A stretch of 63,250 nucleotides of DNA, filler included, from Stramenopiles sp. TOSAG23-6 (taxonomy: Eukaryota), in assembly GCA_900128565.1 (NCBI GenBank). It is 11 parts of 11 records of this genome, joined end to end, with 100 filler letters (N's around TTAATTAATTAA, not from the genome) between each part and the next. Parts side by side here need not be neighbours in the genome. Positions count along the whole stretch, not along the records: positions 18,688 to 24,810 come from LT636771.1; 10 more parts are not named here. The stretch is one strand, 5' to 3'. Shown in pieces: positions 6,136-29,140 of this stretch (position 1 is the first letter of the stretch; each line of letters starts with the position of its first letter). Below the pieces are notes generated by a model. It was given only the letters and a program-made list of their open reading frames with translations, was not told the DNA's origin and searched no databases. Both the position numbers and the translations under genes were made by a program.

Positions 6136-6235
6136 NNNNNNNNNNNNNNNNNNNNNNNNNNNNNNNNNNNNNNNNNNNNTTAATTAATTAANNNNNNNNN
6201 NNNNNNNNNNNNNNNNNNNNNNNNNNNNNNNNNNN
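6136..6235. other. Artificial contig spacer N44-TTAATTAATTAA-N44 (also at 12364, 18588, 24811, 31033, 37255, 43477, 49699, 55921, 62143)
   Basis: Identical 100-nt linker with stops in all six frames between every contig. Confidence 0.98.
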
Positions 6236-6241
6236 TTTACC

Positions 6242-6272
<31 letters not shown>

Positions 6273-6346
6273 CGTAAAAAAATTTCATACCTAACAAATT
6301 TGTACCAAAAAAAAAAAAAAATGAAAAATATTTTTGTACTCTTCAG

Positions 6347-7977
6347 GGTCGTTTATTTCAAGTAACATTACCTAATGATTGTAAAGCTGGTTCTCAATTT
6401 CAAGTGAATATACCTAAAATTCCTAAAATACAAAAAAACATATCACCTACAAATGTTACTCCAAATCATTCAGATAATAATAATGACAATCAAATTGATC
6501 AAATGGATCAAAATCAAAATCAAAATAGTTTTGATACTTTTGTATGTTTTTTTTTTTTTTTTTCAAAAATTTTTAAATTTTTTCAAAAAAAAAAATGTGA
6601 AATATTTTTCGTAGTTAATTTTGTACCTAACCAAAAAAACAAAAAACAAATTCAATATTTTTCAACAGTATTTGATTCAGTGAGTGACGTCAGACAATGG
6701 ACACATAAAACAATGGACAAACATACAACAAAAGAAAATGTTGATACCAAAATAGAATTAAATAATGATGAAATTGAAAAAAATAATGAAAGTGAAAAAA
6801 ATGATGAAATTGAAAAAAATGATATTTTTTCTTCCTCTTTTTCAGAATTAAGTACAGATTTTACTACGGAAACATCTTCTAGTAGTAGTGAAGAGAATGA
6901 ACATATTGATGATTCAATCGGTATACAAACACAAAATCAACACAAAACAATGATTTCAGGAATAATCAAGGCAAAACAAAAAATCAAAAATAAACTTGAA
7001 AAAAATAAAAGAAATAAAAAAAATAAAAAANATAAACAACATAAAAAAAATAAAAATTCAATGAAACAAAATGTTACACATAAAGATGAAACAAAAGTGG
7101 ATTTGATACCATTTGATCCATCAACAAAAATCCGACCTAAAACAATTGAAAAATTAATTGAACAAAAAATTGAACAAAAAATTCTTGATGATGAAAACCC
7201 TACCCCTAATGACACAACAGAAATTAAAAATGTCACAACAGAACTTGATATTGTATGGACAAATGCTTCAGCAAGAGAAGCAACACAACATTCTTTAGAG
7301 TCTTTAGGTTCTTTAGGTACAGATGTATCTTCATTAGGGTTAGGGTTTGAACAAAATGATGATGATGATTCAATCACTTTGAATCATCAAAATAAACAAA
7401 ATATATCAGAAAACACGAAATCAGAACCATCAACGAAATTACAAATTGAAGGAGAACAACAAAAAATACAAAAAAAACAAAAAATACAAAAAATACAAAA
7501 TCAAAAAAAAATTAAAAAATCAAAAAAATCATTATCAAAATTAAGAAGTGTTAGTAAACGAGTAAAATCAGCGAAAAAAACGTTAAGTGCTTTTCAACGG
7601 ATGCATTTGTACGTTTTTATTTTCATCATTTTTTTTTTTTTTTTTTTTTTTTNNNNNNNNNNNNNNNNNNNNNNNNNNNNNNNNNNNNNNNNNNNNNNNN
7701 NNNNNNNNNNNNNNNNNNNNNNNNNNNNNNNNNNNNNNNNNTTTACACTATAGAAAGATAAAAAATGAATGTATGGAATTCTTGAAAAAAAGAGCAAAAC
7801 ATGCATTATCAAGGCATTTGCCATTAGTATATTTACGAAAACGTGTTCAACATGAACGATTACGTTTAGGTACAAAACTGCTTTTACAAAAAGATGGACG
7901 TACACAAATTGATTATTTCATAAAAATGGCAAAAGCTGAAGCTGTTTGTTTTCATCATGAAATATTTAAAATTTTAA

Positions 7978-8008
<31 letters not shown>

Positions 8009-8623
8009 AATTTTTTTTTTTTTTTTTTTTTTTTTTTGTACGAAATTTCATACCTAACAAATTTTTGTATTAAAAAACATATTTTTCACAGTACATGTCA
8101 TGCGTTTACGTAAACATCAAAGAAAACAAGATAAAATGAAACACGAATTAACCGAAATTGCTATAAAATTTCGTAGATTATTAGTGAAAAAAGAAAAATG
8201 TAAATTTTTTATACGATCAAAAATCAAACACGCAAAACATCAATTTGTTCGTTTTCATTCAAAATTTCAAGTTTTTTTTTTTTGTTTAAGTACAAAATGT
8301 CGTACCAAAATTCAAGTGTTCAATCATTTCATTTTTTTTCCCTACACATTAAAAAAAAAAAAAGACAGATCTATTTATAGTTTAAATTTTTCATACAAAA
8401 TTTCATACCTAACAATTTTCTTACATTTTTTAAATATTTATATACGAGATATGCAGCTTTAACGTACCTACAAGACCGTGTACAACATGCAAATTGTCAA
8501 TTTGATGCGATAGAATACTTATTGAAACGAGTCCAACATGAAAAAGATTGTGTACAAAATAAGAAGTATTTAAATATTCGTGGTTTACATGTATGTTTTT
8601 ATTTTCATATTTTTATTTTCATA

Positions 8624-8658
<35 letters not shown>

Positions 8659-9065
8659 TTTCATTCATCTAAAAAAAAACATACTTGACATATTTTTTCA
8701 AAATACATTCAAAACGTCAATATTTTGCATTATATAAATTGCATAAAATAGCAAATAAAAATATACACAAGTGGTATAGGGAATATTTATATGAAATGTT
8801 TGGTGAAAATTCAAGAAGTTTGAACGTATGTTGATTTTTTATCAATGTGTTTTTGAAAAAAAAATTAAAATTTTTTTTTCGTACGAAATTTTGTACCTAA
8901 CAATTTTTTTTAATTTTTTAAAAATATGTTTGACAAAAAATGATAAAGAATTTAAAAGAGAACGTGAATTTTTATATACAATGAGAGATGAGTATGAAAG
9001 ACGTACACATGATATAACTCGACGGTTTCCTATGCCTGTAAAGCCACCAAATATCATTGAAATTT
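6347..9065 (+). CDS. Unknown multi-exon K/N/E-rich protein with repeated R-V-Q-H-type helical segments (partial at both ends)
   Basis: Exons ~6347-6541, 6674-7608, ~7754-7943, 8097-8246, ~8448-8590, 8709-8825, 8930-9065, mostly joined in frame by removal of family A elements; 8247-8447 is unresolved. Confidence 0.6.
6542..6673 (+). mobile_element. Family A non-canonical intron (GT...TT), 132 nt
   Basis: act ttt|GTATGTTTT...GTACCTAAC...AACAGTAT-TT|gat tca; TT duplicated; using the CAG at 6666-6668 gives a frameshift and stop. Confidence 0.7.
7609..7753 (+). mobile_element. Family A-like intron with internal N gap; 3' end ambiguous (could be TAG)
   Basis: GTACGTTTTT start; ...TTTACACTATAG end restores frame (L-KIKNECMEF), as would an end 3 nt earlier. 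Confidence 0.5.
7944..8096 (+). mobile_element. Family A non-canonical intron (GT...AT)
   Basis: gaa gct|GTTTGTTTTCATC...GTACGAAATTTCATACCTAAC...CACAGTAC-AT|gtc atg cgt; the CAG alternative is out of frame. Confidence 0.75.
8247..8447 (+). mobile_element. One or two family A elements, possibly flanking a micro-exon
   Basis: GTTCGTTTTC start, two core-like motifs and an ATAC-GA end; single removal does not restore frame and the mirror copy differs here. Confidence 0.45.
8591..8708 (+). mobile_element. Family A non-canonical intron (GT...AT)
   Basis: tta cat|GTATGTTTTT...CAAAATAC-AT|tca aaa cgt opens a 39-codon exon; AT duplicated. Confidence 0.75.
8826..8929 (+). mobile_element. Family A non-canonical intron (GT...GT)
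   Basis: ttg aac|GTATGTTG...GTACGAAATTTTGTACCTAAC...AAAATAT-GT|ttg aca aaa is in frame. Confidence 0.7.
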
Positions 9066-9207
9066 GTATGTTTTTTTTGAAATTTTTTTTGAAATTTTTT
9101 TTGAAATTTTTTTTTGAAATTTTTTTTGAAATTTTTTTTTTTTATTATCGAAAAAAAAAAAAAAAATTCATACCTAACAAATTTTTACAAAAAAAAAAAA
9201 ATTTTTT
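9066..9207 (+). mobile_element. Family A element truncated at the fold-back centre, with internal (T)nGAAA tandem expansion
   Basis: GTATGTTTT start, CATACCTAAC core, then the sequence inverts. Confidence 0.65.
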
Positions 9208-9349
9208 AAAAAATTTTTTTTTTTTTGTAAAAATTTGTTAGGTATGAATTTTTTTTTTTTTTTTCGATAATAAAAAAAAAAAATTTCAAAAAAAATTTCA
9301 AAAAAAAATTTCAAAAAAAATTTCAAAAAAAATTTCAAAAAAAACATAC

Positions 9350-9756
9350 AAATTTCAATGATATTTGGTGGCTTTACAGGCATAGGAAACCGTCGAGTTA
9401 TATCATGTGTACGTCTTTCATACTCATCTCTCATTGTATATAAAAATTCACGTTCTCTTTTAAATTCTTTATCATTTTTTGTCAAACATATTTTTAAAAA
9501 ATTAAAAAAAATTGTTAGGTACAAAATTTCGTACGAAAAAAAAATTTTAATTTTTTTTTCAAAAACACATTGATAAAAAATCAACATACGTTCAAACTTC
9601 TTGAATTTTCACCAAACATTTCATATAAATATTCCCTATACCACTTGTGTATATTTTTATTTGCTATTTTATGCAATTTATATAATGCAAAATATTGACG
9701 TTTTGAATGTATTTTGAAAAAATATGTCAAGTATGTTTTTTTTTAGATGAATGAAA

Positions 9757-9791
<35 letters not shown>

Positions 9792-10025
9792 TATGAAAAT
9801 AAAAATATGAAAATAAAAACATACATGTAAACCACGAATATTTAAATACTTCTTATTTTGTACACAATCTTTTTCATGTTGGACTCGTTTCAATAAGTAT
9901 TCTATCGCATCAAATTGACAATTTGCATGTTGTACACGGTCTTGTAGGTACGTTAAAGCTGCATATCTCGTATATAAATATTTAAAAAATGTAAGAAAAT
10001 TGTTAGGTATGAAATTTTGTATGAA

Positions 10026-10073
<48 letters not shown>

Positions 10074-12252
10074 GGTGGGGAAAAAAAACTATAAATAGAT
10101 CTGTCTTTTTTTTTTTTTAATGTGTAGGGAAAAAAAATGAAATGATTGAACACTTGAATTTTGGTACGACATTTTGTACTTAAACAAAAAAAAAAAACTT
10201 GAAATTTTGAATGAAAACGAACAAATTGATGTTTTGCGTGTTTGATTTTTGATCGTATAAAAAATTTACATTTTTCTTTTTTCACTAATAATCTACGAAA
10301 TTTTATAGCAATTTCGGTTAATTCGTGTTTCATTTTATCTTGTTTTCTTTGATGTTTACGTAAACGCATGACATGTACTGTGAAAAATATGTTTTTTAAT
10401 ACAAAAATTTGTTAGGTATGAAATTTCGTACAAAAAAAAAAAAAAAAAAAAAAAAAAATTTAAATTTNNNNNNNNNNNNNNNNNNNNNNNNNNNNNNNNN
10501 NNNNNNNNNNNNNNNNNNNNNNNNNNNNNNNNNNNNNNNNNNNNNNNNNNNNNNNNAAAAAAAAAAAAAAAAAAAAAAAAATTAAAATTTTAAATATTTC
10601 ATGATGAAAACAAACAGCTTCAGCTTTTGCCATTTTTATGAAATAATCAATTTGTGTACGTCCATCTTTTTGTAAAAGCAGTTTTGTACCTAAACGTAAT
10701 CGTTCATGTTGAACACGTTTTCGTAAATATACTAATGGCAAATGCCTTGATAATGCATGTTTTGCTCTTTTTTTCAAGAATTCCATACATTCATTTTTTA
10801 TCTTTCTATAGTGTAAANNNNNNNNNNNNNNNNNNNNNNNNNNNNNNNNNNNNNNNNNNNNNNNNNNNNNNNNNNNNNNNNNNNNNNNNNNNNNNNNNNN
10901 NNNNNNNNNNNNNNNNNNNNNNNNNNNNNNNNNNNNNNNNNNNNNNAAAAAAAAAAAAAAAAAAAAAAAATGATGAAAATAAAAACGTACAAATGCATCC
11001 GTTGAAAAGCACTTAACGTTTTTTTCGCTGATTTTACTCGTTTACTAACACTTCTTAATTTTGATAATGATTTTTTTGATTTTTTAATTTTTTTTTGATT
11101 TTGTATTTTTTGTATTTTTTGTTTTTTTTGTATTTTTTGTTGTTCTCCTTCAATTTGTAATTTCGTTGATGGTTCTGATTTCGTGTTTTCTGATATATTT
11201 TGTTTATTTTGATGATTCAAAGTGATTGAATCATCATCATCATTTTGTTCAAACCCTAACCCTAATGAAGATACATCTGTACCTAAAGAACCTAAAGACT
11301 CTAAAGAATGTTGTGTTGCTTCTCTTGCTGAAGCATTTGTCCATACAATATCAAGTTCTGTTGTGACATTTTTAATTTCTGTTGTGTCATTAGGGGTAGG
11401 GTTTTCATCATCAAGAATTTTTTGTTCAATTTTTTGTTCAATTAATTTTTCAATTGTTTTAGGTCGGATTTTTGTTGATGGATCAAATGGTATCAAATCC
11501 ACTTTTGTTTCATCTTTATGTGTAACATTTTGTTTCATTGAATTTTTATTTTTTTTATGTTGTTTATNTTTTTTATTTTTTTTATTTCTTTTATTTTTTT
11601 CAAGTTTATTTTTGATTTTTTGTTTTGCCTTGATTATTCCTGAAATCATTGTTTTGTGTTGATTTTGTGTTTGTATACCGATTGAATCATCAATATGTTC
11701 ATTCTCTTCACTACTACTAGAAGATGTTTCCGTAGTAAAATCTGTACTTAATTCTGAAAAAGAGGAAGAAAAAATATCATTTTTTTCAATTTCATCATTT
11801 TTTTCACTTTCATTATTTTTTTCAATTTCATCATTATTTAATTCTATTTTGGTATCAACATTTTCTTTTGTTGTATGTTTGTCCATTGTTTTATGTGTCC
11901 ATTGTCTGACGTCACTCACTGAATCAAATACTGTTGAAAAATATTGAATTTGTTTTTTGTTTTTTTGGTTAGGTACAAAATTAACTACGAAAAATATTTC
12001 ACATTTTTTTTTTTGAAAAAATTTAAAAATTTTTGAAAAAAAAAAAAAAAAACATACAAAAGTATCAAAACTATTTTGATTTTGATTTTGATCCATTTGA
12101 TCAATTTGATTGTCATTATTATTATCTGAATGATTTGGAGTAACATTTGTAGGTGATATGTTTTTTTGTATTTTAGGAATTTTAGGTATATTCACTTGAA
12201 ATTGAGAACCAGCTTTACAATCATTAGGTAATGTTACTTGAAATAAACGACC
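9350..12252 (-). CDS. Mirror copy of the unknown K/N/E-rich gene
   Basis: Reverse complement of 6347-9065 apart from gap sizes and a local indel. Confidence 0.5.
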
Positions 12253-12326
12253 CTGAAGAGTACAAAAATATTTTTCATTTTTTTTTTTTTTTGGTACAAA
12301 TTTGTTAGGTATGAAATTTTTTTACG

Positions 12327-12357
<31 letters not shown>

Positions 12358-12463
12358 GGTAAANNNNNNNNNNNNNNNNNNNNNNNNNNNNNNNNNNNNN
12401 NNNNNNNTTAATTAATTAANNNNNNNNNNNNNNNNNNNNNNNNNNNNNNNNNNNNNNNNNNNN

Positions 12464-15525: not shown

Positions 15526-15621
15526 AAAAAAATTTTCAAAAAAAAAAAAAGTTAGCCTAAAAAACGTTTTGAAAAAAAAAAAAAAAAAAAAAAAAATCAA
15601 AATTCAATTTTGAAAACGAAC

Positions 15622-16664
15622 ATTCTCCATCTCATCAATTTCAAATTTAAATCTACTGCAGAATCAGCTAACATACGAGAGTCCATGAGTTTTGATAAAT
15701 TGACATGTCTTGGACCCATTTTGCCTTTTTTATTACATTCCCAACCTAAAACTTTTGAAATAATCGAATTTGGAAGAGTTAGAGATGTCGACATTACCTC
15801 CGACGTCAACATTCCCTTGAGATCCACTGTAAAAAATACACTTTTCATTGACGAATTTGTAAAAGAGTGACATGGATAATCTCTATAACATAAAATACGA
15901 AATGTGTTTAACTTCATTCGTAAGGCGATCATTAACAAAATATTACGGATAGGCCACCCAGGATTCTCTGGTAATGAACTTGGATCTAAAATGCCAATTA
16001 CAAAGTTTGCTTTCAAATCTTCTGGATTTTCATCTAATAATATAGACAGATCAAAAATATCAATTTCACCAGTTTCACTATTTCGACGCATGACAAATGC
16101 TGGAGCCGGTCGGGATCCACCTCCAAGTTTACATACTATCTCGGCTACGGAAGGTAGTTGTTTTTCTGGATCGGAAAAATATTCAGAAGTTGTTTCAATT
16201 GAACCACAAAAGTTAGCATTATTTGAAGGGACTAGAGCAGGAAACGCAAACCAATAGACAAAAACATGTTTCTTTAGATCTGCAAAGGTAACAAGGAGAA
16301 AAGGGTTAAGCCTACTCGGATCTTCTATCGCTTTACCTGAAATAATATCTGATAACACTTCCATTCCAAGATCATTAAGCATTTTAGTTCGATTGGCTGC
16401 TTTAAATTCTTCCACAGTGTTAAAGTTTCTGAGCACACCACGACACCGAACACCACTATTAGCATACGTGTCAATTTCTACCTGGAATGCGTCAGCACTA
16501 ACACTCATTCGAGCACCAATTTTCCCACCGTGACGGGAAACATCATATGAACCGACAATATCGACAGCTGCGTCACTCAGACAGTACTCATCAAGCTTTC
16601 GCCGAGCCAACTCTTTCCAGAATGAAGCGTCAACATGAGATGAAAAACACTGATATTTTAACAT
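15622..16664 (-). CDS. ATG7: ATG7 N-terminal exon (mirror copy)
   Basis: Reverse complement of 14387-15429. Confidence 0.85.
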
Positions 16665-16962
16665 AGATCGAATGTAATAAAATGAGAACTCTTCAAATGT
16701 CTTACAAAGACAGGCGTATTCACTTTCTAAACAACGGAATAATAGCCGAATAATAATCTAGCTTGGCGACACAATGTTATATAGTATTTACTAAACAACG
16801 GCCAACAATCAACATTGTCAAAATTTCGTACCAAAATTTCGTACCAAATTAAACGGACGACACTACCTTCGACTAGGATCGTCTTTCCCGTCATTACTCC
16901 AAAAGTATACACTGAACTGATTAGATCAAAAAGGTGGGGGCAACATTTCCAAATATTTCAGA

Positions 16963-18587
16963 ATGAGTGTCCATCGCACAATGCCTCCAAGAGGATCTGG
17001 TCCTATTTTGAAGGAAGAGTTACTTCCGGAAACCCTTAAAATCCTCAAGGAAATATGTAAAGATGAACCAGCACTACCCCCAGAATCCCTCACCAGCAAC
17101 AATAGTAGCAAAGATGACGCTTCTTCACCAAAGTGGAGTGCCTTTTTTACATATCCAGAAAAAGATGGCATTCATGTAAATGCATATCGTCGGAGAAAAC
17201 CACCGTCTTCACTTTTTGAGTATATTTTTATTGGTGTGCTACCTGTGTCTGCGAGAGCCTTGGTTCAGGCAACATATAATGACTCGTACAGACTAAATTG
17301 GGATTCTAATTGTAAAGAAGTTTCTCATATCACGTCGGAGAAAGGTTGTCAAGTACTATATTTGGAAAGTGCATACCCAATGCCAATGTCTAATAGAGAT
17401 TATGTGTTTTATCGACGTCTTGGTTCCGTTATTATACCGAAAGAGGCAAAAGAGGCAAAAGATGGAAAATGTAGAAAAATTTATACTTGTCTTTCTCGGC
17501 CACATCCTGAAGACGCAAAACTTCGCCCTTTGCGATATGGATTTTTCACTGGTGTTGTACGTGTTACACAATCTTATGCTACTCAAATGATTGAACCGTT
17601 GACACCTACTTCATGTAAATTTGTTATAAAAATTTTTGAAGATCCTGGAGGAAGTATTCCAGCATTTGCAGTGAATTTTGCTGTTCGAAAACTCTTACCT
17701 AAAATGGTGATGGAATTATATGAATCTGCTCTACATGTAGATGCATGGTTGAAAGCAAACCCTGATGCGTCGAAGTCTATCACATTTGCTGATGTCGATT
17801 TTACTGATTGTGTCAATTTGAAATCACAAAAAGAGAAACAAGAGAAACAAAAGAAACAATTTCACGAATCTGATGCATCAACTCAAGAAAAACAATTTCA
17901 CGAATCTGATCCAATCCACTCAACGAATACATCCAATAAAATGTCATTGTCTTCAAGATTACTCGGTGGTGGTGGAGGTAGTGATGAAATAGTTCAACAT
18001 ATAAAAAAAGATCCAGAAGATTTCGTGTATAGTAAAAACAATATAGAAAATACTTCAAGTAAAATAATGAAAATGTATCCAAGATATATGTCTCAACCTC
18101 GCACGAAATCTTGTACATCTAATTTTGTACATGAAATTTTGTCCCGAAAACATAAATTTTGGTGTGCGCCAATGGTAGGTCAAAGTGATTTAGCATTTAG
18201 AATGCTTGCACGGGAGAATAATTGTAGTGTATGTTCAACACAAATGATAGATGCCGCTGGGTATAATGTTTCAGAAGTATATGTACGTTTTCACAATTTC
18301 AAATGTAATTTTTTTTCGTACGAAATTTCGTACCTAACGATTTTTTTTTTTTTTTTTTTTAAATATTTTTTCACTATACATAGAAATTCTTTTGCATTTC
18401 ATCAAAAGGATCGACCTCTAGTGATTCAATTTTGTGGGAATAATGCGGATGTTCTAATTGCCGCTGGGAAAAGAGTTGAAGCTGCTGGATTGTGTACGTT
18501 TTCATTATGAATTTCAAATTTATTTTTTTTTTTTTGAAAATTTTGTACCTAACAAATTTCGAATTTAATTTTTTTTACAATACATGT
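16963..18587 (+). CDS. START (PCTP/STARD7-like) domain fused to tRNA-dihydrouridine synthase (DUS1-like), 3'-partial
   Basis: START: YRLNWD, YPMPMSNRDYVFYRR, EDPGGSIPAFAVN. DUS: CAPMVGQSDLAFRMLAR, DRPLVIQFCGN. Exons 16963-18282, 18382-18493, 18586-. Confidence 0.85.
18283..18381 (+). mobile_element. Family A non-canonical intron (GT...AT), 99 nt
   Basis: gta tat|GTACGTTTTC...GTACGAAATTTCGTACCTAAC...CACTATAC-AT|aga aat gives SEVY-RNSF; the TAG 2 nt further would frameshift DRPLVIQF. Confidence 0.85.
18494..18585 (+). mobile_element. Family A non-canonical intron (GT...AT), 92 nt
   Basis: ttg t|GTACGTTTTC...TACAATAC-AT|gt yields a Cys codon; no AG in the element. Confidence 0.75.
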
Positions 18588-18687
18588 NNNNNNNNNNNNN
18601 NNNNNNNNNNNNNNNNNNNNNNNNNNNNNNNTTAATTAATTAANNNNNNNNNNNNNNNNNNNNNNNNNNNNNNNNNNNNNNNNNNNN

Positions 18688-20877
18688 CACCTGCATTTAG
18701 ATTTGTTAATGTACTTGTTTTTATCGCATCTAGATCAAGTGATACATTTTCGTTTTCTTCAATTTCTTCCTGAATATTTTCATCTTCAGGAATTTCATTT
18801 ACTATTATAGGCTCACGCCAGTGACAACCAGGTTCCGCAAGACATCCACTTTGTCCGATTTTGGTTAAGTTCTCGCAACTATTTCGGTCTTTACAAGATA
18901 GCTCAGTTTCATTCCAAGCACATCCTTCGAGAGATTCACAAATCATTTTATGCATAGCTGGGATCTCTGAAATAGCTTTATTCCATTGTGATACAATTTT
19001 CACACGATTTGAGCAGATCGCTGTGCAATTATCTATATTGATTTCACATAAAGGTCCTGAATAATCATCATTACACATGCATTTAAATGACGCTTTTTTG
19101 TCGATACACTTTCCGCCGTGTTGACAAGGATTTGAGAGACACTCATGTATTGAATAAAAATAATATCAAATTCGAAATTCGTTAGGTACAAAATTTTGTA
19201 TGAAAAAAAAATTCATGATGAAAACATACATCTATATTATGTTCACAAAATTGTCCATCAAATCCATTCCTACATTCACAAGTGTACTCTGCAATACCAT
19301 CCACACACTTGGCCTTATTTTTACATTCATGTTCTAAACATTCATCGATTTCTGTACCACACAAAAGTCCTTTCCATATATATTGTGAAAAATATTTTTT
19401 TTTGTAAAATTCATTAGGTACAAAATTTCGTATGAAAAAAAAAATAATAATTTGAAAATCCTTATGAAAATCCTTATGAAAACATATCCTTTTGAACATT
19501 CACATTTAAAATTTTCCTTTGGCAAGTCTATGCATTTGCTATTATTTTTACACGGAGCGCTCACACAATCATCAATATCGATTTCACAAAATTCACCTGT
19601 AAATCCTTTCGTGCACTCACATGAATATTTTGCAACTTCATCGATACATTTTGATCCATTTTCACATTTATTGTTTCCACAGTCTTGTATTGTGAAAAAA
19701 TATTAAAAAAAAAAATGTTAGGTACAAAATTTCTTATGAAAAAAAATGAAATTTATCATGAAAACGTATATCAAGATCATGGTCACATAGTATACCGGAA
19801 AACCCAGTTTTGCATTCACAGTGAAATCTACCTCCCATTAAATTCTCACAAGAAGCTCCATTGTTGCAAGGTGAGCTTTCGCATTCATCAATATCGACAT
19901 CGCAAGTTTCACCAGTCCAACCTCTAGAACATGGATATTGTAAAAAATATTTTTTTTTGATTTAAAAAACATCGTTAGATATAAAATTTTCTATGAAAAA
20001 AAAATTTGAAATTTATGATGAAAACATATGTACACCTAAATCCTATAGGTAAGTCTGTACAAATACTATTATTTTGACAAGGTTTGGATTCGCAGTCATA
20101 GATATTGTGAAAAAATATTTTTTTTTGTAAAATTCATTAGGTACCAAATTTCGTATGAAAAAAATAAATTCAAATTAATGATGAAAACGTATCTTTAATA
20201 TCGTTTTCGCAAAAGATACCTCTTGTACCAGGATGACATTTACAATAGTAATCTCCATTTTTCTTGGCAATACATATTCCTTCATTTTTGCACGGAGATG
20301 AAGAACATGGACCCATAGCTTTTGCACAGTTTTTGCCTTCCCAACCAGGAGTACAACGACACATATAGTCTTTATTTTCATTTTTACACACGCCTTGCTT
20401 ACACGGATTTGGTGTACAAAGGTCTATATTTTCCTGTTTTGGAGGTTTCCTTTTTTCTATTTGTGTTTTCAATTCGGTTTCTGTGCAGTTTTCACCAGTA
20501 AATCCACTGATGCAGTCACACTTATACAAGCTACCTTGTTTTGTACATCTACCCCCATTCTTACAAGGTGACGTTGCACATGGATCTATTATTTTATCCA
20601 AGCGCGGATCTTCCCAAGAGGTATTTCCAGTTTTACTGTTGTAATAGTATGTATTTCCAGTACTATCATCTATATGCGTTGTCCAGGTATCTTCTTCAAC
20701 TATTTTAGTTGTTTTCATTGACGCCGGTTTTTCCCATGTTGTTTCTTTTGTTTCCGTATTGTAATAATACTTGCGGCCTGAGCCTGTATCTGTGAATTCT
20801 TGCCAATCAGAAGTAATTAAACTCAAATTATTACTAAATGCAATGAGTAAGAACACAAATGTTGTATCAAATCTCAT
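18688..20877 (-). CDS. Signal peptide + 2 WW domains + about 9 EGF/Ca-EGF repeats (3'-partial, 6 exons)
   Basis: MRFDTTFVFLLIAFS; WQEFTDTGSGRKYYYNTETKETTWEKP; WTTHIDDSTGNTYYYNSKTGNTSWEDP; exons 20877-20193, 20099-20030, 19932-19770, 19684-19488, 19377-19230, 19144-18688 give continuous 6-Cys repeats. Confidence 0.9.
19145..19229 (-). mobile_element. Family A non-canonical intron (GT...AT), 85 nt
   Basis: ata gat|GTATGTTTTC...TTCAATAC-AT|gag tgt gives CEHNID-ECLSNPC; AT duplicated. Confidence 0.85.
19378..19487 (-). mobile_element. Family A non-canonical intron (AT...AT), 110 nt
   Basis: aaa gg|ATATGTTTTC...CACAATAT-AT|a tgg gives CSK-G-WKGLLC, keeping the conserved EGF Gly. Confidence 0.85.
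19685..19769 (-). mobile_element. Family A non-canonical intron (AT...AA), 85 nt
   Basis: ctt gat|ATACGTTTTC...CACAATAC-AA|gac tgt gives CDHDLD-DC. Confidence 0.8.
19933..20029 (-). mobile_element. Family A non-canonical intron (AT...CC), 97 nt
   Basis: tgt ac|ATATGTTTTC...TACAATAT-CC|a tgt gives FRC-T-CSRGWTG; boundary can slide a few nt. Confidence 0.8.
20100..20192 (-). mobile_element. Family A non-canonical intron (AT...CT), 93 nt
   Basis: aaa g|ATACGTTTTC...CACAATAT-CT|at gac tgc gives CENDIK-D-DC; an end 3 nt later is also in frame. Confidence 0.7.
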
Positions 20878-21137
20878 GGGAATCGCATGTATCCAAAGAC
20901 TATTTGTATCTATTAATAGTACGTGTTACGTGTTTTGCGTAGCCTACATTTGAATTTCATGGAATCGGAATCATCATATTCCATTCGGCCGGAGATTTTA
21001 AAATTAATAGAACCGAAAACAAAACGAAAACGCTTCGTCCTCTTCTTTTTGAAGAACATGCGATACCTACTAGACCGTGTCATCAAGAATGATTAAGGGA
21101 TTATGATTTTATGCTTAGTCGTTGGTAGTGACGAAAA

Positions 21138-21541
21138 TGGAAGCTAAGGACGACAAGCCCAGGAATAGTTTTGATGGCAGTAATTCTGGATTTACCAACT
21201 CTCGCTCAATCGGCCGCGTGAGTCCAAACCGTTTATTTAAACACAACATTAAAAGTGCTTTACAAGAATCAGCGCCATTTATTCGTTCTTCCGAGATCAT
21301 TTTCTCCAATGAATGTGACAATGAAGCAGAAATCCACATAAAATGTTTATCTGAAGGTGATGATTTAATCATTATCGCAAACTGGGTTGGAAAATCTCTT
21401 GGTTTTCGCTTATTGCGGAGTTTGCGACCATGTTTCAAAGTGACTCACTGCGATGACCTTCACTCTTTATTGATGCAATGCCCTTGCTATTCAGATGCTT
21501 TCAATTCTTCGCTTGCAAATAAATTAGCTACATTAACATAA
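21138..21541 (+). CDS. Hypothetical protein (~134 aa)
   Basis: Open frame with ATG, divergent from the EGF gene, higher GC than its flanks; no recognisable domain. Confidence 0.4.
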
Positions 21542-21824
21542 AACACGTCAATTTGTCATACAAAGAAAACGTGAAAAATAAGGGAATTAGGTTTAACGTA
21601 ACTCTCTAATCCAAAAACAATTGTTAGGTCAAAATGGATTGCCTTCAATTCGCAGGATATTACTGAGTTATTCGCGAAAGTAATAAAAATGGTTTATTTT
21701 TTGACTTTTATTTTTTATTACAATTTATGCGTTGTGCTTACAATTTATGCGTTGTGCGAGAAAATAGTAGATTTGTCTATACAGAGGTATTGAAACCACA
21801 GACTTAAACAACAAACAGTGATAA

Positions 21825-23456
21825 TTAAATAATTTTAATATTTTCTGGCTTTACAGAAATAGAAGCTGCACCATTGCACGGTCGTACACCAAGCCTTCCA
21901 TTTTTCATTATCGTTTTTGTAACCACACCTTCAGTGCCATTCAAAGACTCTCCCTTCTCCGAAGTAAGATTAAAAAATCGAACTTTATCTCCTATCGCAA
22001 ATTTATGGATTGTAATATTTTCTGGCTTTACAGAAATAGAAGCTGCACTATTGCACGGTCGTACACCAAGCCTTCCATTTTTCATTATCGTTTTTGTAAC
22101 CACACCTTCAGTGCCATTCAAAGACTCTCCCTTCTCCGAAGTAAGATTAAAAAATCGAACTTTATCTCCTATCGCAAATTTATGGATTGTGGGGACATCT
22201 ACTGCTGCTAACTTCTTAACATCTGATAAATTCTCAACTTCTGCTGCCGCCGCCGCCGCCGCTGCTGTTCCTGCTCCCGCTGCTGCGGTCGCTGCTCCTG
22301 CCGCTGCTCCTGCTCCTGCCACTGCTGCCGCCGCTGCCGCTGCTGTTTTCCTCGCGTCAGCTGTCTCCGAATGGATGCCACCTCGTCGTAAATGAGGTAG
22401 AAGTCTCTCTCTAGCATCAAAATCCTTCATCGTCTTCTGAAGTTGTTCATCCATGTTTCCCGCAATTAAATCGATCAAGTCGTCAGCTAAGTGATTTGCT
22501 TGGACGGTGCCATTGGAAATCATGTCCTGACATACCCGAGATAAGTACAATTTTAGTCTTGCTGTATATGTATTCCAAACACTTCCAGGAATCACAGTTA
22601 GTTGTTGCTGCGTTCTATCACGCCTAAAAAACAAATCATTTCTATTGATACGTTTTTCAGACATAAAAGAGATTGGTCTGTGATCACCGTCGCCATAAGC
22701 AGGAAAAGTTTCGGTCTTGTCATGAAGGTCAGCACAATGAGGTTTAATAATCCATCCGTCTGGTCGAATTACAATTTCAGTGAAAAGGAAACCCATAAAA
22801 ACCCCATGTACAGTCTCAAAGTCATCAATAACACTATCGGCACGCAAATCATTTTTCGACCTATGATAATACATCACCTCTGCTCCACTTTGGTGTCTAA
22901 ACACAGGCGCACCATTTTGATATTTGTCTTGTATATTGTATCTGCCAGATTCAATACTTTTTCTTAAAGAATATACGTATACGTCTTCATCGAATAAGTC
23001 CTGATTTTTATGCTCTTCATATTCATCTCTGTCCCGTGTTACTCTAGGCGGAAAGCTGAAAGAATAATTAATATAATTATTTGGATCAAGCCTCTCTGCG
23101 GCTCTATTCCATTGCCCAGTTGGGGAACTTGTAGTTATTTCATACCAGTGTTTATTAGTTTGACCCAATATCCACCGGTCGTCTAAACCCCCACGCCAAA
23201 TGAATATTTTACCCTCTTTGCTTTCTTTTGAAAAGATAATTTCACGTGCGTTTTCTGATTCTGATGGATCCTGTGTGTAGATTCCGTTAGCGTTTTTATA
23301 ACCAGCACCATACACATAGAGGTGTTCTGGAATTTCAGGTTCAGGTTCAAGTTCAGTTGCTCCATTTACAGTTCTATTTCTACAATTAAAAATAAGCGTC
23401 ACGAGCAACAGCTTAAGGAAGGTGGCCAACAGAAACACTTTAATAAAAGTTATCAT
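21825..23456 (-). CDS. Intronless 543-aa protein: hydrophobic N-terminus, poly-Ala linker, two near-identical 59-aa SH3/KOW-like C-terminal repeats
   Basis: Long ORF; repeat IHKFAIGDKVRFFNLTSEKGESLNGTEGVV...SVKPENI twice. Confidence 0.75.
   Translation of the reverse strand: MITFIKVFLLATFLKLLLVTLIFNCRNRTVNGATELEPEPEIPEHLYVYGAGYKNANGIYTQDPSESENAREIIFSKESKEGKIFIWRGGLDDRWILGQTNKHWYEITTSSPTGQWNRAAERLDPNNYINYSFSFPPRVTRDRDEYEEHKNQDLFDEDVYVYSLRKSIESGRYNIQDKYQNGAPVFRHQSGAEVMYYHRSKNDLRADSVIDDFETVHGVFMGFLFTEIVIRPDGWIIKPHCADLHDKTETFPAYGDGDHRPISFMSEKRINRNDLFFRRDRTQQQLTVIPGSVWNTYTARLKLYLSRVCQDMISNGTVQANHLADDLIDLIAGNMDEQLQKTMKDFDARERLLPHLRRGGIHSETADARKTAAAAAAAVAGAGAAAGAATAAAGAGTAAAAAAAAEVENLSDVKKLAAVDVPTIHKFAIGDKVRFFNLTSEKGESLNGTEGVVTKTIMKNGRLGVRPCNSAASISVKPENITIHKFAIGDKVRFFNLTSEKGESLNGTEGVVTKTIMKNGRLGVRPCNGAASISVKPENIKII
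21837..22189. repeat. 177-bp tandem duplication within CDS
   Basis: Two copies offset by 177 nt with one visible substitution (Ser/Gly). Confidence 0.9.
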
Positions 23457-23700
23457 TATTCTTATTATTTGTATATTGGGGCCTTAGTAAATAAGTATAG
23501 ATAGACTTTGCTTGTTCTTCCTTGAATTTAATCTAAATCGGTATGGACGCACAAAACACTGACTTGATCCGTGTCCTTTACCGCGGTTTTTTTCGTGTGT
23601 TTTGCTGGCAGGTCGAGGTTGAGGTCAATATATCGCGATTTGATTTGATGACGTCGTACAAATTGTACAATGATACCACCGAATACATATTAGACTAAAA

Positions 23701-24810
23701 ATGGGCAAATTTGATGAAATTCCCTTACATTTGCGTTTTTTATTCGGGGCAAGTGCAAATTGCACTGCTACGGCTGTGACACATCCTATGGATGTTTTAA
23801 AAGTTCGCTTGCAGCTCGACGGGCAAGTTGCTGCAAAAAAAACACGTCTAGTTCATTGTGCTCAGTCAGTTTTCCAATTAGAGGGTACCAGAGGTTTCTT
23901 TAGGGGTCTTTCTCCTGCATTTCTTCGACAAATTTTTTATGGTGGGACTCGGCTCACTGTATATGATATTGCGTTAGATTACGCTAGTGACCATGATGGA
24001 ACACCGCCTCCACTATATATAAAGGCCCCAATAGCTCTCACCGCAGATATTTTATACTTATTACAAAACAAAAAATAATAATTCATCAATTTCTATTGTA
24101 GCGTTATAATTTATTAATTTGTATTACAATTGACACATTGAACACTTTATATGTGCGATTGGTGCCATGGTTGGCAATCCCTTTGATTTATCATTAGTTC
24201 GAATGGCAGCAGATGGTAGTAAACCAGTAGCAGAGCGCCGTATGTATAAACATGGCTTTGATGCAGTGTATGTTTTATATGAATTTCTAATTGAATTTTT
24301 TTTCATACGAAATTTCGTACCTAACGATTTTTTTTTTGAAATATTTTTTCACAATACGTGTATCGAATCAGCAAAGAAGAAGGTTTTCTCTCACTTTGGC
24401 GGGGTTGTGGTCCAACATATTTCATACATATTACAAACAAACAAATAATAATATCAAGTTGTATCATATCTTTTATAATTTATTAATTTGTATCATAATT
24501 GACACATTGAACACTTTAAATGGTAGGTCGTTGTATGGTATTGAATGTTGGTCAGCTTTCAACGTATACTGAAGCTAAACAACAGCTTAAAGCGTATCTG
24601 GGATTTCGCGAGGGAATTACATTACATTTTGTTTCATCTATGATTTCTGGTTTTGTTGCCACGTCCATGGCTTTGCCATTTGATACTGCTAAAACTAGAA
24701 TGTATGTTTTATTTTTTTTCAAATTCTATTTTTTTTTCGTACGAACTTTTGTACATAACGATATTTTTTTGAAATATTTTTCCAAAATACATACAGCAAC
24801 TACCTTCCGG
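23701..24810 (+). CDS. Mitochondrial carrier (SLC25), 2-oxoglutarate/malate or dicarboxylate-tricarboxylate type, 3'-partial, 5 exons
   Basis: Three PxDxxKxR signatures (PMDVLKVR, PFDLSLVR, PFDTAKTR); exons 23701-24046, 24153-24267, 24360-24416, 24522-24701, 24793-. Confidence 0.92.
24047..24152 (+). mobile_element. Family B non-canonical intron (AT...AT), 106 nt
   Basis: gca g|ATATTTTATAC...TTGACACATTGAACACTTTATAT|gt gcg gives ALTA-G-AIGAMVGNP. Confidence 0.85.
24268..24359 (+). mobile_element. Family A non-canonical intron (GT...GT), 92 nt
   Basis: gca gt|GTATGTTTT...CACAATAC-GT|g tat cga gives FDA-V-YRISKEEG; GTGTAT repeated across both junctions; no AG in the element. Confidence 0.88.
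24417..24521 (+). mobile_element. Family B non-canonical intron (AT...AT), 105 nt
   Basis: cca ac|ATATTTCATAC...TTGACACATTGAACACTTTAAAT|g gta gives GCGP-T-VGRCM. Confidence 0.85.
24702..24792 (+). mobile_element. Family A non-canonical intron (GT...AT), 91 nt
   Basis: aga at|GTATGTTTT...CCAAAATAC-AT|a cag caa gives DTAKTR-I-QQ; AT duplicated. Confidence 0.8.
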
Positions 24811-25026
24811 NNNNNNNNNNNNNNNNNNNNNNNNNNNNNNNNNNNNNNNNNNNNTTAATTAATTAANNNNNNNNNNNNNNNNNNNNNNNNNNNNNNNNNN
24901 NNNNNNNNNNTAACGTATGTTTTATTTTTTTGAAAATTTGAATTTTTTTTTTTTAGTTTTCATACGAAATTTTGTACCTAACAAAATGTTTTTGATTTTT
25001 TTTTGAAATATTTTTCCAAAATACAT

Positions 25027-28000
25027 ACAATTTCATGTATACAACCAACATTAAACACTACTTTCAGTGATATACAATTGGTGAACCGGGTATCCAGACA
25101 ACCAAAGATTCCAGGACGTCATCGAAAACATGGAACAGATTTGGCAAGAATAATATATGTTTTTTTTTTTTTGCCCGGATACAAAAAAATTTGATGTGAA
25201 AAAATGGTATTTATCCCCCGTAGCTGATGATAGAATAGACGATTATCCCCAACAACAACAACAACAACAAATGCATGACGTATCATCTATGGATCATGCA
25301 TCTTTGGGACATCATATTCGAAATACTGATCCATATGCAAATAACTCTAATCGAAATGAATTAAATATATCTCAAGGTACGAAATTTGGTATGGATTTGA
25401 GTAGTCAAAGATTTGTATCACAACATGTTATGGACCCTAATGGTAGAAAGCGTTCTAATTCTGATTCATCTAATTCTTATCACGAGTATAAACAACATTG
25501 TGAAAATTTAATCACACAAGTTGAACGCCTCGATTCGTATGAGGAAAAAATGTTTGATTTTCAAGGTGTTAGAGCTCGTGTACGAAAAGGTGCATATAAA
25601 AAACAACATGGATTTACTGATGCTATAAAACGTGTCATAGAAAAAGTACGAAAGAAAGAAGAAGAGCACCAGAACGAGAAGTTTTTTAGAGCCACTGAAG
25701 TGTTGGAGGAATTCAAAAAATTATTAAAGAATTTTCGTAGTGATATGAATCATTTAAAAAAACAGGGGTATAGTGATCAAATATATCCCATAAGTCAAAA
25801 AAAACGTATGAGAATGTATGTTTTATATGAATTTCTAATTTAATTTTTGTTTCACACGAAATTTCATACTAAACGATTTTTTTTTTGAAATATTTTTTCA
25901 CTATATATGACGCATCATGGAGGAGATGTCATTCATGGTACTCATCAATATGGATATGAGGATACTCGTAGATGGTCTTCAACAAGCAGTTCGATTAACA
26001 ATGATGCAATCAGTAATAATTATTGTTATGAAGATGATAGGCATCAGTTTGAAAATTCATCAAACATGAATCGATACAATCAAGGAATTCGACCTTCGAG
26101 TGGACTTAAAATTAAGATTGATCGTGCTCATGCTACAGACATTATTAACCTACAACACCACCCTTCATCCGCACGTTCAACGAGCAGTCGTCAAAGCTAT
26201 GTGGATGAGATCCAACAACAGCAGTTCGAACAACAACTACAACAACAACAATTACAACAACAACAACAACAACAACAACAACTATTACAACAACAACAAC
26301 AACAGCAACAACAACAATTCCAGCTTCAGCAACAACAACAACTAAAAGAAAAAATGCGTAGAGAGCAACAGCGGGTGTTACAACAACATAAACATTCATA
26401 TGTAAATCAGAGAAAATCGGAGTCTCACAGAAGACCGACTGTTCGCAGTGCTCAACAAAACACGAATTCTTCGAATAACTCTAACAAAATGTATCAGAAA
26501 GTTCCTGTCGTATTATTACTCGGAGCTCCATGCTGTGGTAAAGGAACACAAGGTAAAATATTACAAAGTGCTCTGCGGTGGCATTATGTATCATGTGGTG
26601 AAGAATTGCGTAAAGCACGAGTCATCAGCGCGAATGCTCATGCGATAAAAAATTTGGCACGTCTAGAGAATGATCCAAATTCGAAATCAGAAGCTTATGT
26701 CTTGCGGTGTCGAATTATTGATGAATTATTAAAGCGTCAATGTCTTCGTGCTTGCTTAGTAGAAAGTAATTATGCTGGCTTAGTGATTGATGGGTGCCGA
26801 ACTGTAGAACAAGCGAGGGCAATGGAGCAGACACTATCATGTATCAAAGGTCTCCCACCCCTAAAAATTCAGATTGTTGTAACTTTGCATGTACCGAAGG
26901 AAATTGTAAAAGAAAGAACATTTGATCGATGGATACATGCTCCAAGTGGTCGTATTTACAGCAAAACCATACGACCTCCAAAAAACCCTGGGTTTGATGA
27001 CGTCACCGGTGAACGTCTTACCCAAAGAAGTGACAATGATATGTGGGGAAAAAGACACGATTTTTATATAGAAAAACTTGAAGATGTACAAAATTATTTT
27101 GTAAAAAGAGGCGCCTTATTATTAAATGTTGATGCTACATCAACGCCATTGAATGTTCATTCTAAAGTTACCAATGTAATCAATCTAGGTTTATATAATC
27201 GGAAAATAAAACTTTCTCTTCCGGGTGAAGCCGCTTTATGCAGTCGTCCTCGATTGGCTCATTCATCAGCTTTACCTTCTTGGAACAAAGCTAATGGTGG
27301 TGGATGTCTTATTTTATGTCGCAAACCACTTGCTGATTTAATAATTAGAGCTTTAGCTGAAGTTGATGAAACTCCTTTAAAACTTTCTCAGAATACGAAT
27401 ATACCTACAACAGAAGTGTCAACATCACTTAGGAAAACACTTGCCTGGCCTATTACGCAAAATCCTGAGCGACTGCGTGATTTTTTAGTAGATGTTGCTT
27501 CTAGTAACAAAAATATTTCTGTTGTGCAACAAACTGTTCAGCTTGGAGAATGTTTAGGTTTACAATCATTATTACGCGAATCAACTGATATGAGTGCTTA
27601 TTTTGGTACTGTCACTGGATTAAAAACGTTTGAAAATGGTGTTCAATTTGGAAAAATTTCATATAACCCTAACCCAGATGAACCTTTAAATGAACCTTTA
27701 AATGAACCTTTAAATGAGCATTTAAATGAGCATTCAGGAATAGTGAAAGAAATAGAGTTTAGTATGGATGAAGTTCGAACACCTACCATTGATATCACAA
27801 AAGATATGGAGGTTTCGTTTAATATTGTATCTAGACAGGGGAAAGATTGGGCTGTTAACATTGAAATTTGGGATGAAAAAAAAGTGAATATTTTAGATGT
27901 TTTAGAAAATGAAAATAATGAAATTTGGAATCTTGAAAAGACGAAAAATACAAAAAATGATACGATGGACAAATTAGATCCTAAAGATTTGGAATCGACG

Positions 28001-29140
28001 ACGGTTACAACAGATAGAAATTTGATTAATTCTGGCCATTCTTTTGATTTGACTACGAGACTCTCAGACAAACACGAATTACCAAAGAGTGATACGATGA
28101 TGGTTAAAAATAATGTAGCTGATGAAACATGTACTCGTAACCCTAACCCTAATGATACAATTGGAGTTGAACAAAGTTCAATTAATACGGAATTAACTAC
28201 AGAAAATGAAAACCTTTCCGTAGATGGTGAAAATCACAAAAATAATAAGAACAATGAAACATTGAAATCAGTGATGGATGATTCTAAAACAATAATGAAT
28301 AAAGAGATAAAAAACAATGAAACACAAAATACTACAAAAACAATGAATGACGATACAAATCAAGAAATAACGACTAAAAAATTATTTGAGAATAATGGAA
28401 AAGATATCCAACCATCTTCAAATTGTGATGAAAAAACTGGAAAAACTGAAAAATCGAAAACGAATAAAGAAATATGGTGTGGTTTGCTCACATTTGGATT
28501 AAAATTACCTCAAGTTGTTCTCCCCAGTGGTGTCTTTCAAGCCGAAGATTCGGGACATTCTCTAAATTGCGCAGCGCGAGAATTGAAGAAACATCTTGGC
28601 ATCGTTTTAGAATCAAAAATTTGGACTAGTACGACACAACAATATTTACGACAAAAACAATTAAATCCAAAATATGGTACATTAGAGTTATATAGAGATT
28701 CGGTTAGTCAACCCAAGCATCGCGTTTATTATATTTTATTACCAGAGGCAAAAGATGCTATTGTCAGTGTTTTGTATGATAAAGATGGCCGGCGTATCAT
28801 TCGAATATCAACAAAACATCCAGCGTCTAGTTCAACAGTTACATCAACAAAAAGTCGATCAACAATAAAAAAAAATGAAAAACAGCCTAATTGGGTTGTT
28901 AAAACTGTGGACGGTGTGCACTTCTTTTATAATATGCATAAAAAAGTATTTGTCTCTCATACATTACCTCAAGAATGGATAGCAGCAGGATGGCAAATTG
29001 CTTGTCAGAGTGCTGGTACAATGTTGTATTGGTTTAATAAAATATCACAAGAGTCTGAATGGAGAGCAGGCGATAATGCAAAATCACCACCAGGATTTGA
29101 ACCGCACCCGGATCATAAAGAAGTGAAAATCCCAAATTAA
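25027..29140 (+). CDS. Copy of ADK-like multidomain gene
   Basis: Same translation as 117-4230. Confidence 0.75.

Follow-up and report, generated by a model that had tools for sequence, protein, structure and literature searches.

An RNA-supported AT-AT intron and its close relative in the gene for a mitochondrial carrier from an uncultured stramenopile

Splicing outside the GT-AG rule has been documented at genome scale in few lineages: the larvacean tunicate Fritillaria, the syndinialean Amoebophrya, and the euglenids together with hemistasiid diplonemids. Fritillaria borealis and F. pellucida possess non-canonical U2-type introns of AG/AC and AG/AT classes, with AT as the commonest 3' end (PMC13326754 gives 34% for F. 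borealis and 44% for F. pellucida). Their origin is ascribed to insertions of transposons, and their splicing to a major spliceosome that has been modified (PMC13326754; PMC11282704). In Amoebophrya (Syndiniales) the terminal dinucleotides of introns are not fixed, and over 60% of the introns are non-GT-AG (PMC7789003). Introners, transposon-derived GT-AG introns known from Micromonas, Aureococcus, dinoflagellates and other organisms, are a further point of reference, being related sequences that occur as sense introns at unrelated sites, as do the two inserts described here. These inserts, B1 and B2, interrupt a mitochondrial carrier gene of Stramenopiles sp. TOSAG23-6 (assembly GCA_900128565.1). 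Together with their host gene they lie on the contig at positions 18688-24810 of the window, which is the whole stretch of 63,250 nucleotides (nt) that was analysed, a chain of contigs of about 6.1 kb sorted by length and not a single locus. A sequence-only reading of this DNA had proposed both inserts as introns with AT-AT termini. An RNA contig junction confirms this exactly for B2, while the borders of B1 follow from homology.

Removal of B2 from the carrier transcript

The carrier gene was compared with contigs of three poly(A) metatranscriptome runs (X5, X6 and X12) and of one DNA run (X2), which contains the organism. Besides B1 and B2 it holds two copies of a different element, family A. 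Its parts are as follows.

23701..24046, plus strand: exon 1, with ATG at 23701 and a frame open over 115 codons, ending in phase 1
24047..24152, plus strand: intron B1, 106 nt, ATATTT...TTATAT (AT-AT), with borders suggested by homology
24153..24265, plus strand: exon 2, whose 3' border slides by up to 6 nt, GTGTAT standing at both ends of the next intron
24266..24363, plus strand: family A intron copy 1, 92 nt removed, with seven equivalent placements from 24266-24357 to 24272-24363
24364..24416, plus strand: exon 3, part seen in RNA (X5 contig 11, contig positions 1-53)
24417..24521, plus strand: intron B2, 105 nt, ATATTTC...TTTAAAT (AT-AT), its removal shown in RNA with an unambiguous joint
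24522..24699, plus strand: exon 4 (X5 contig 11, contig positions 54-231)
24700..24792, plus strand: family A intron copy 2, 91 nt removed, X5 contig 11 joining 24699 to 24791
24793..24810, plus strand: start of exon 5, the gene being truncated by the contig end (X5 contig 11 positions 232-251 lie on 24791-24810)

Contig 11 of run X5, a poly(A) RNA contig of 252 nt, matches 24364-24416, 24522-24699 and 24791-24810 with 0 mismatches and with consecutive contig coordinates. It joins 24416 directly to 24522, so that B2 is absent from the RNA precisely at AT...AT. The joint is fixed, since position 24416 is C and 24521 is T, and 24417 is A and 24522 is G; no sliding can turn B2 into a GT-AG intron. 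The contig carries the genotype of the window, while the other strain, represented in X2 and X6, differs at 24522. Family A copy 2 is skipped by the same contig. B2 is thus a sequence present in DNA and missing from mRNA, with an exact joint that keeps the frame, as an intron should be; for B1 the same is read from homology. The comparison of RNA junctions that the sequence-only reading had suggested, carried out at contig level, shows the B2 junction precisely as proposed.

The choice of the 3' site seems specific, more than merely relaxed, because AG dinucleotides stand close by and are left unused in X5 contig 11: one ends 5 nt past the B2 cut (24522-24527), and another 6 nt past the leftmost cut of family A copy 2 (24791-24796).

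At which level are the inserts removed? DNA contigs of X2 span both B1 (contig 2, 23500-24292) and B2 (contig 7, 24335-24725) at depths of 7.45 and 9, equal to the exon depth. Because these contigs carry the inserts at exon depth, removal of B occurs in RNA, and bulk DNA keeps both inserts. The joined RNA contig could still be thought to reflect a loss at the DNA level (programmed elimination, an intron-less allele or a retrocopy) or an assembly chimera instead of splicing, as the joined form is seen in a single low-depth contig and RNA libraries can contain DNA. We hold this explanation to be highly improbable: the contig skips two unrelated inserts precisely with the frame kept, over 251 nt it agrees without a mismatch with the genotype of the window, in whose DNA the inserts are present, and no skip of B1 or B2 occurs among the X2 joints listed (15 of 90). 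A de Bruijn chimera, for its part, requires shared 31-mers at the joints, and none is present. Several forms of DNA elimination were considered by name. Germline-limited DNA resembling internal eliminated sequences disagrees with the X2 depth; ciliate-type internal eliminated sequences with TA borders were dropped, given that TA-bounded removal breaks the frame and DNA keeps the insert; and pointers of the spirotrich type were dropped, B having no flanking repeat.

Splicing of the carrier gene is also consistent with its product. Once the four stretches (B1, B2 and the two family A copies) are removed, an open frame with three carrier signature motifs results, and it aligns without gaps to 16 carrier homologues, picked from 150 listed by an exhaustive search. 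The codon split by B1 becomes Gly, which stands at that column in 16/16 homologues. It is from this gap-free alignment and the invariant junction Gly that we infer the borders of B1. If B1 or B2 is left in, in-frame stops appear, in the case of B1 after 10 codons. The spliced peptides predicted beforehand were recovered on removal of B1 and B2, within the open carrier frame. Copy 1 of family A is bounded by a GTGTAT direct repeat (24266-24271 and 24358-24363), and its removal keeps frame and alignment whole. Against the Pfam Mito_carr model the stretch 24523-24699 scores 21.8 bits (E 1.6e-4), slightly below the 22.3-bit cut-off, and Pfam PF00153 is recorded for P0002, a protein near-identical to the exon 1 product. 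P0002 is the one relative of near-equal length found for the exon 1 peptide, and its reading runs into B1; it is an open reading frame from a 2030-nt Logan contig, which, judged by its length, is probably contig 2 of X2. A word-based search with the exon 1 peptide gave no longer relative, and the exhaustive search gave none above 40% identity except P0002. We consider it fairly probable that the carrier gene is intact and expressed and carries B1 and B2 as genuine introns.

Relationship and copy number of B1 and B2

Aligned over their full length, B1 and B2 agree in 92 of 108 columns (85%), and their global score of 72 stands against 5.8 +/- 5.1 in 500 shuffles (z 13.1), with 0/500 equalling it. 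The matching columns are unevenly spread: 32/36 agree in the 5' part and 46/50 in the 3' part, but 14/22 in the middle, which leaves two conserved blocks.

24047..24068 in B1 and 24417-24438 in B2, plus strand: conserved 5' block (32/36 identical in the first 36 columns)
24103..24152 in B1 and 24472-24521 in B2, plus strand: conserved 3' block (46/50 columns identical), containing TTGAC in B1

The motif TTGAC lies at 24130-24134 in B1 and at 24499-24503 in B2, placing its A at -20 from the intron end in both; TTGAAC is also present, at about -11. These results bear out the coordinates and the shared start and end sequences of the initial proposal. The second strain, represented in DNA run X2 and in RNA run X6, retains both B introns and departs from the window sequence at roughly 1% of sites. 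Its differences fall at 24084, 24443, 24458 and 24522 and at the exon sites 23710, 23727, 23793, 23992 and 24232; the three that lie within B (24084, 24443 and 24458) are all in the middle, with none in the 3' block or the first 22 nt.

Neither insert shows the flanking or terminal repeats often found in introner families. The flanks of B1 (...CCGCAG / GTGCG...) and of B2 (...TCCAAC / GGTAG...) have no direct repeat in common, no target-site duplication is found at them, as had been noted from the sequence, and terminal inverted repeats were sought in both inserts and none detected beyond ATAT in B1. This sets family B apart from the transposon-attributed introns of Fritillaria. Amoebophrya is, like the host of B, a marine protist with repeated introns, yet its introner elements have end inverted repeats of 8-20 nt and border direct repeats of 3-5 nt, of which B has neither, and some of its nuclear genes are 54-58% GC as against 21-41% in the window bins (PMC7789003). 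Introners in general are numerous and often accompanied by target-site duplications or inverted repeats (PMC9860276), while B has two known copies and no such marks; those of Aureococcus, moreover, use canonical splice sites (PMC7789003), unlike the AT-AT ends of B.

The variable non-GT-AG ends and short length of B recall the nonconventional introns of euglenids and hemistasiids (hemistasiid median 37-91 nt), but these belong to a different lineage and show strong pairing of G/C-rich ends (PMC12621601), whereas the ends of B are A/T-only and unpaired. A removal guided by structure and independent of the spliceosome, in which paired intron ends bring the exons together, has been proposed for euglenids, hemistasiid diplonemids and Amoebophrya. 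Its transfer to B is encouraged by the non-GT-AG ends, by the abundance of introns of this sort in those lineages of marine protists (PMC12621601, PMC7789003), and by the four A-U pairs that ATAT...ATAT at the ends of B1 could form. However, the predicted folds of B1 and B2 are at shuffle level, with minimum free energies of -7.7 kcal/mol for B1 (z -0.02; 93 of 200 shuffles equally good) and -5.8 kcal/mol for B2 (z +1.18; 180 of 200), and leave both ends unpaired in either insert; terminal pairing is broken in B2 (ATAT vs AAAT), the junctions have no direct repeat, and the 5' ends of B resemble a weakened GTATGT donor. Removal guided by such pairing is accordingly very doubtful.

Do B1 and B2 belong to a larger family? 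The two lie 370 nt apart in a single gene, and an nhmmer profile of the pair returns them as the only two matches in the window (E 9e-26 and 5e-25; next E 2.1), in agreement with blastn-short. In X2 the B bins have the depth of one contig each (7.45 and 9), which leaves no further copy at least 90% alike. Searches with words from the invariant 3' block gave four loci, all chance matches without flank similarity, for a 20-mer in JGI metagenome contigs, one chance match for an 18-mer in viral contigs, and 0 matches for a 20-mer in prokaryote genome contigs. The idea of a repetitive family, put forward in the sequence-only reading, is therefore not established. Instead, B1 and B2 could be a local pair, arisen through duplication or transposition of an intron within this gene (gene conversion would be one route, reverse splicing into the same transcript another), with no dispersed family behind them; they would be AT-AT introns all the same. 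In favour of this are the confinement of both copies to one gene, the lack of flanking duplications and of terminal inverted repeats beyond ATAT, the chance matches in the public collections, and the X2 depths, to be set beside about 1e5 for the family A bins. On the other hand, copies as diverged as B1 and B2 themselves, at 85% identity, would escape both the 90% threshold and the exact 18- to 20-mer scans. The sites of B1 and B2 are, furthermore, at non-equivalent places in the internal repeats of the carrier, which makes a segmental duplication carrying the intron unlikely; an origin of the pair by duplication of the carrier repeats was dropped on this ground. To the local pair we give not quite even weight.

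Family A and a proposed splice-site rule

Family A is an element of about 92 nt. It begins much like GTATGT, has the palindrome TACGAAATTTCGTA as its core, carries CCTAAC and a run of T, and finishes with ATAC. Its consensus can be written (G/A)TA(T/C)GTTTT ... TACGAAATTTCGTACCTAAC ... T run ... CA(A/C)(A/T)ATA(C/T)+NN. It combines a good major-type donor (GTAYGT), a pyrimidine tract and a branch-like CTAAC motif, placed about 33 nt before the 3' end, with an end in ATAC+NN that lacks AG. The copies are these.

24266-24363, 24700-24792, 25815-25901, 24920-25030, 18270-18360 and about 18500-18587: family A copies, gene-sense
Near 19200, 19432, 19736, 19993 and 20155, minus strand: family A copies, gene-sense

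All 11 of the 11 copies in window genes are in the sense orientation of their gene, and five have the same dinucleotide on both sides (AT in four cases, GT in one). In the window the family behaves as high-copy introners classically do, with flanking repeats of 2 nt. In X2 the family A bins sum to a depth of about 1e5 compared with 7-9 for unique bins, a difference of about 1e4-fold that is not a copy number. Because of this summed depth and the 11 gene copies in about 16 kb of gene-bearing sequence, family A points to a very abundant element. A 20-mer of its core has 0 matches in viral contigs.

B had been described as not sharing the family A core, and this is upheld by four alignments of A against B, all at shuffle level (z -0.5 to 0.2; 219-365 of 500 shuffles as good). 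The termini are another matter. If family A starts at the G/A of GTATG, its start GTATGTTTTAT and the B start ATATTTTATAC are alike at 8/11 positions, and in that register both families end in CAC-N3-A-N-AT. At the copy near 19432 the same register would keep the Gly of the EGF pattern C-x-C-x-x-G-[FYW], which the alternative register would lose. The joint of copy 2 in the carrier gene can be placed at 24700-24790 (AT-AC), 24701-24791 (TG-CA) or 24702-24792 (GT-AT).

Other genes are split by family A as well. A secreted-looking protein encoded at 18688-20925 on the minus strand has two WW domains and EGF repeats of the calcium-binding type, with five family A copies inside; three of the five occupy equivalent positions in their repeats, immediately ahead of [DE]-C, which suggests that EGF repeat units were duplicated along with their intron. 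A long gene at 25154-29140 on the plus strand, with an adenylate kinase domain amid Q-/N-rich low complexity, is split in its 5' part by the copy at 25815-25901. Nowhere in the window did a GT-AG intron look convincing.

What kind of machinery could remove both families? One candidate is the minor spliceosome. The 5' splice site consensus of U12-type introns is [AG]TATCCTT, whose CC pairs with U11 and U6atac, and their branch box, TCCTTAAC, lies 10-26 nt from the 3' end. B1 and B2 would then be U12-type AT-AT introns, and family A in its AT-AC register likewise, in a lineage that expanded and loosened its minor system and left the major one unchanged. B has in common with U12-type AT-AC introns the 5' AT, a possible branch motif near the 3' end and a 3' dinucleotide other than AG. 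Indeed, B2 begins and ends with AT, the family A joint 24700-24790 is readable as AT-AC, a hallmark of U12-type introns (PMC13326754), the motifs TTGAC and TTGAAC fall within the short branch-to-3' distance, and U12-type 3' sites tolerate varied end dinucleotides. The details, however, fit poorly. The 5' ends ATATTTTA (B1) and ATATTTCA (B2) match the consensus ATATCCTT at 5/8 and 4/8 positions with the CC missing, which leaves the likeness to a U12 donor seen in the sequence-only reading a weak one; B ends in AT and not AC; and TTGAC and TTGAAC, the only candidates for a branch box, lack the TCC and do not clearly match TCCTTAAC. Family A in the AT-AC register starts with ATGTATGT, unlike the U12 consensus, and a register of this type would replace the conserved EGF Gly at the copy near 19432. 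U11, U12, U4atac and U6atac are all without a match in the window, which holds about 19 kb of non-redundant sequence. A U12 identity of these introns is thus unlikely.

We favour, with reasonable though incomplete confidence, the explanation that B1 and B2 are spliceosomal introns under a lineage-specific non-AG rule, residing in an intact and expressed carrier gene. A spliceosome with its own code is preferred because the U12 5' match is weak, the ends do not pair and the inserts are in the DNA. The idea that the relaxed rule belongs to the host machinery, already advanced from the sequence, fits the removal of two unrelated sequences (B2 and family A copy 2) from one transcript without GT-AG. 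Under this explanation the lineage would have a spliceosome that follows a rule other than GT...AG and excises the inserts. The 5' signal would be RTATKT (family B has ATATTT, family A GTATGT), and the 3' cut would fall after AT, about 7 nt beyond CAC, even with an AG a few bases downstream. B1 and B2 would derive from one ancestral intron sequence whose ends were kept and whose middle drifted. The recognition signals probably lie in the first 22-36 nt or so and the last 50 nt or so, because the ends stayed alike while the middle drifted, and they would include a branch site, perhaps the adenosine within TTGAC, at -20. The pattern appears to imply that the spliceosome takes part, that the signals lie at these positions and that the rule extends to the whole genome.

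To our knowledge, A at +1 together with T at -1 is not known to work in standard spliceosomes, which speaks against this explanation, as do the other points collected here. The spliced form is seen in one RNA contig only, at a depth of 3.1 and in a single run (X5). RNA contig 17 of X6 retains B2, with the variants of the second strain, and may be unspliced RNA or carried-over DNA. The B1 joint (24046|24153) is outside the RNA contig cover in X5, X6 and X12; near B1, contig 1 of X12 covers 23841-23991 only and contig 12 of X6 23678-23811 only, a gap in cover that is neutral as evidence. The register of family A is ambiguous (AT-AC, TG-CA or GT-AT), and the common end in AT is one of two readings. 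Rfam gives 0 matches over the window's non-redundant sequence. The taxonomic placement, finally, depends on the source label of a single protein, P0152, discussed below.

Some precedent for such a rule is given by Fritillaria. The combination of A at +1 and T at -1 does occur in its AG/AT introns (PMC13326754), which share their first base A and last base T with B1 and B2, and in both systems removal is precise without GT-AG and introns end in AT. The correspondence is incomplete. Of the Fritillaria YAY rule, which applies to the bases before the 5' site and the last three bases (PMC13326754), the B1 end TAT fits, while the B2 end AAT and the upstream CAG and AAC do not; the 5' end is AG in Fritillaria and AT in B, so that B fails as a member of the class. 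Fritillaria is also a chordate, and the host of B a protist, by its label a MAST-3 stramenopile.

A broader conjecture, against which we lean slightly, is that MAST-3 dropped GT...AG genome-wide. Short sequences derived from elements, with cuts at RT...AT (or AT...AY), would make up nearly all of its introns. MAST-3 would be another independent lineage, and the first among stramenopiles, with a re-tuned 3' recognition that actively ignores nearby AG. If this is true, family B would be a low-copy, older class whose conserved ends define the minimal signals of the altered code.

Host lineage and implications

The host is probably an uncultured marine stramenopile of the MAST-3 clade, as judged from the 'MAST3'-like source label of P0152. 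This EukProt protein is identical at 339/340 aligned residues to an ATG7-like open reading frame on the contig adjoining the carrier contig; besides the one mismatch the two differ by one 15-residue gap, and the next relative is 51% identical. The ATG7-bearing contig also has family A copies, within a Dus-like gene. The gap arises from the P0152 model, in which 15 residues are lost to a GT-AG intron of 45 nt modelled at 15826-15870 on the minus strand (gene 15597-16757). In an alignment of eight sequences, 7/7 ATG7 relatives besides P0152 have residues at the modelled intron. The intron model is probably wrong, an artefact of the predictor, because homologues possess the excised residues.

The contigs of the window are joined by N44 + TTAATTAATTAA + N44, with linkers at 6136-6235, 12364-12463, 18588-18687 and 24811-24910 and thereafter each 6222 nt. 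A 6,122-nt contig is present in six copies, with a seventh, longer by 13 nt, at the window start. The contig at 12464-18587 is a perfect palindrome, and that at 6236-12363 resembles a gapped palindrome whose two end pieces are exact reverse complements; the latter has 21-25% GC, long A/T runs and several degenerate family A cores outside obvious genes. These duplicated and palindromic contigs look like amplification or assembly artefacts of single-cell data.

In the literature, the PDF supplements of MAST single-cell papers being outside the search, our searches turned up no account of introners, or of introns other than GT-AG, for MAST lineages. The main text of PMC5778133 lacks 'splice' and 'canonical' and has 'intron' twice, in the methods, its three text supplements are without these terms, and the main text of PMC8163842, which names Incisomonas marina as a MAST-3 species in culture, lacks 'intron'. 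Non-GT-AG introns are thus found here in a lineage where they have apparently not yet been described.

Gene predictors that assume GT-AG will yield wrong gene models in these assemblies, as exemplified by the P0002 reading frame running into B1 and by the public ATG7 model P0152. The B pair itself constitutes a small natural experiment, in which conserved ends and a drifting middle mark the likely signal sites of an unusual rule. Each lineage with non-GT-AG introns bears on the question of why GT-AG is otherwise so fixed, and the RNA-backed AT-AT junction, found on one transcript with an unrelated intron that lacks AG, points to a further such lineage among abundant uncultured grazers of the ocean.

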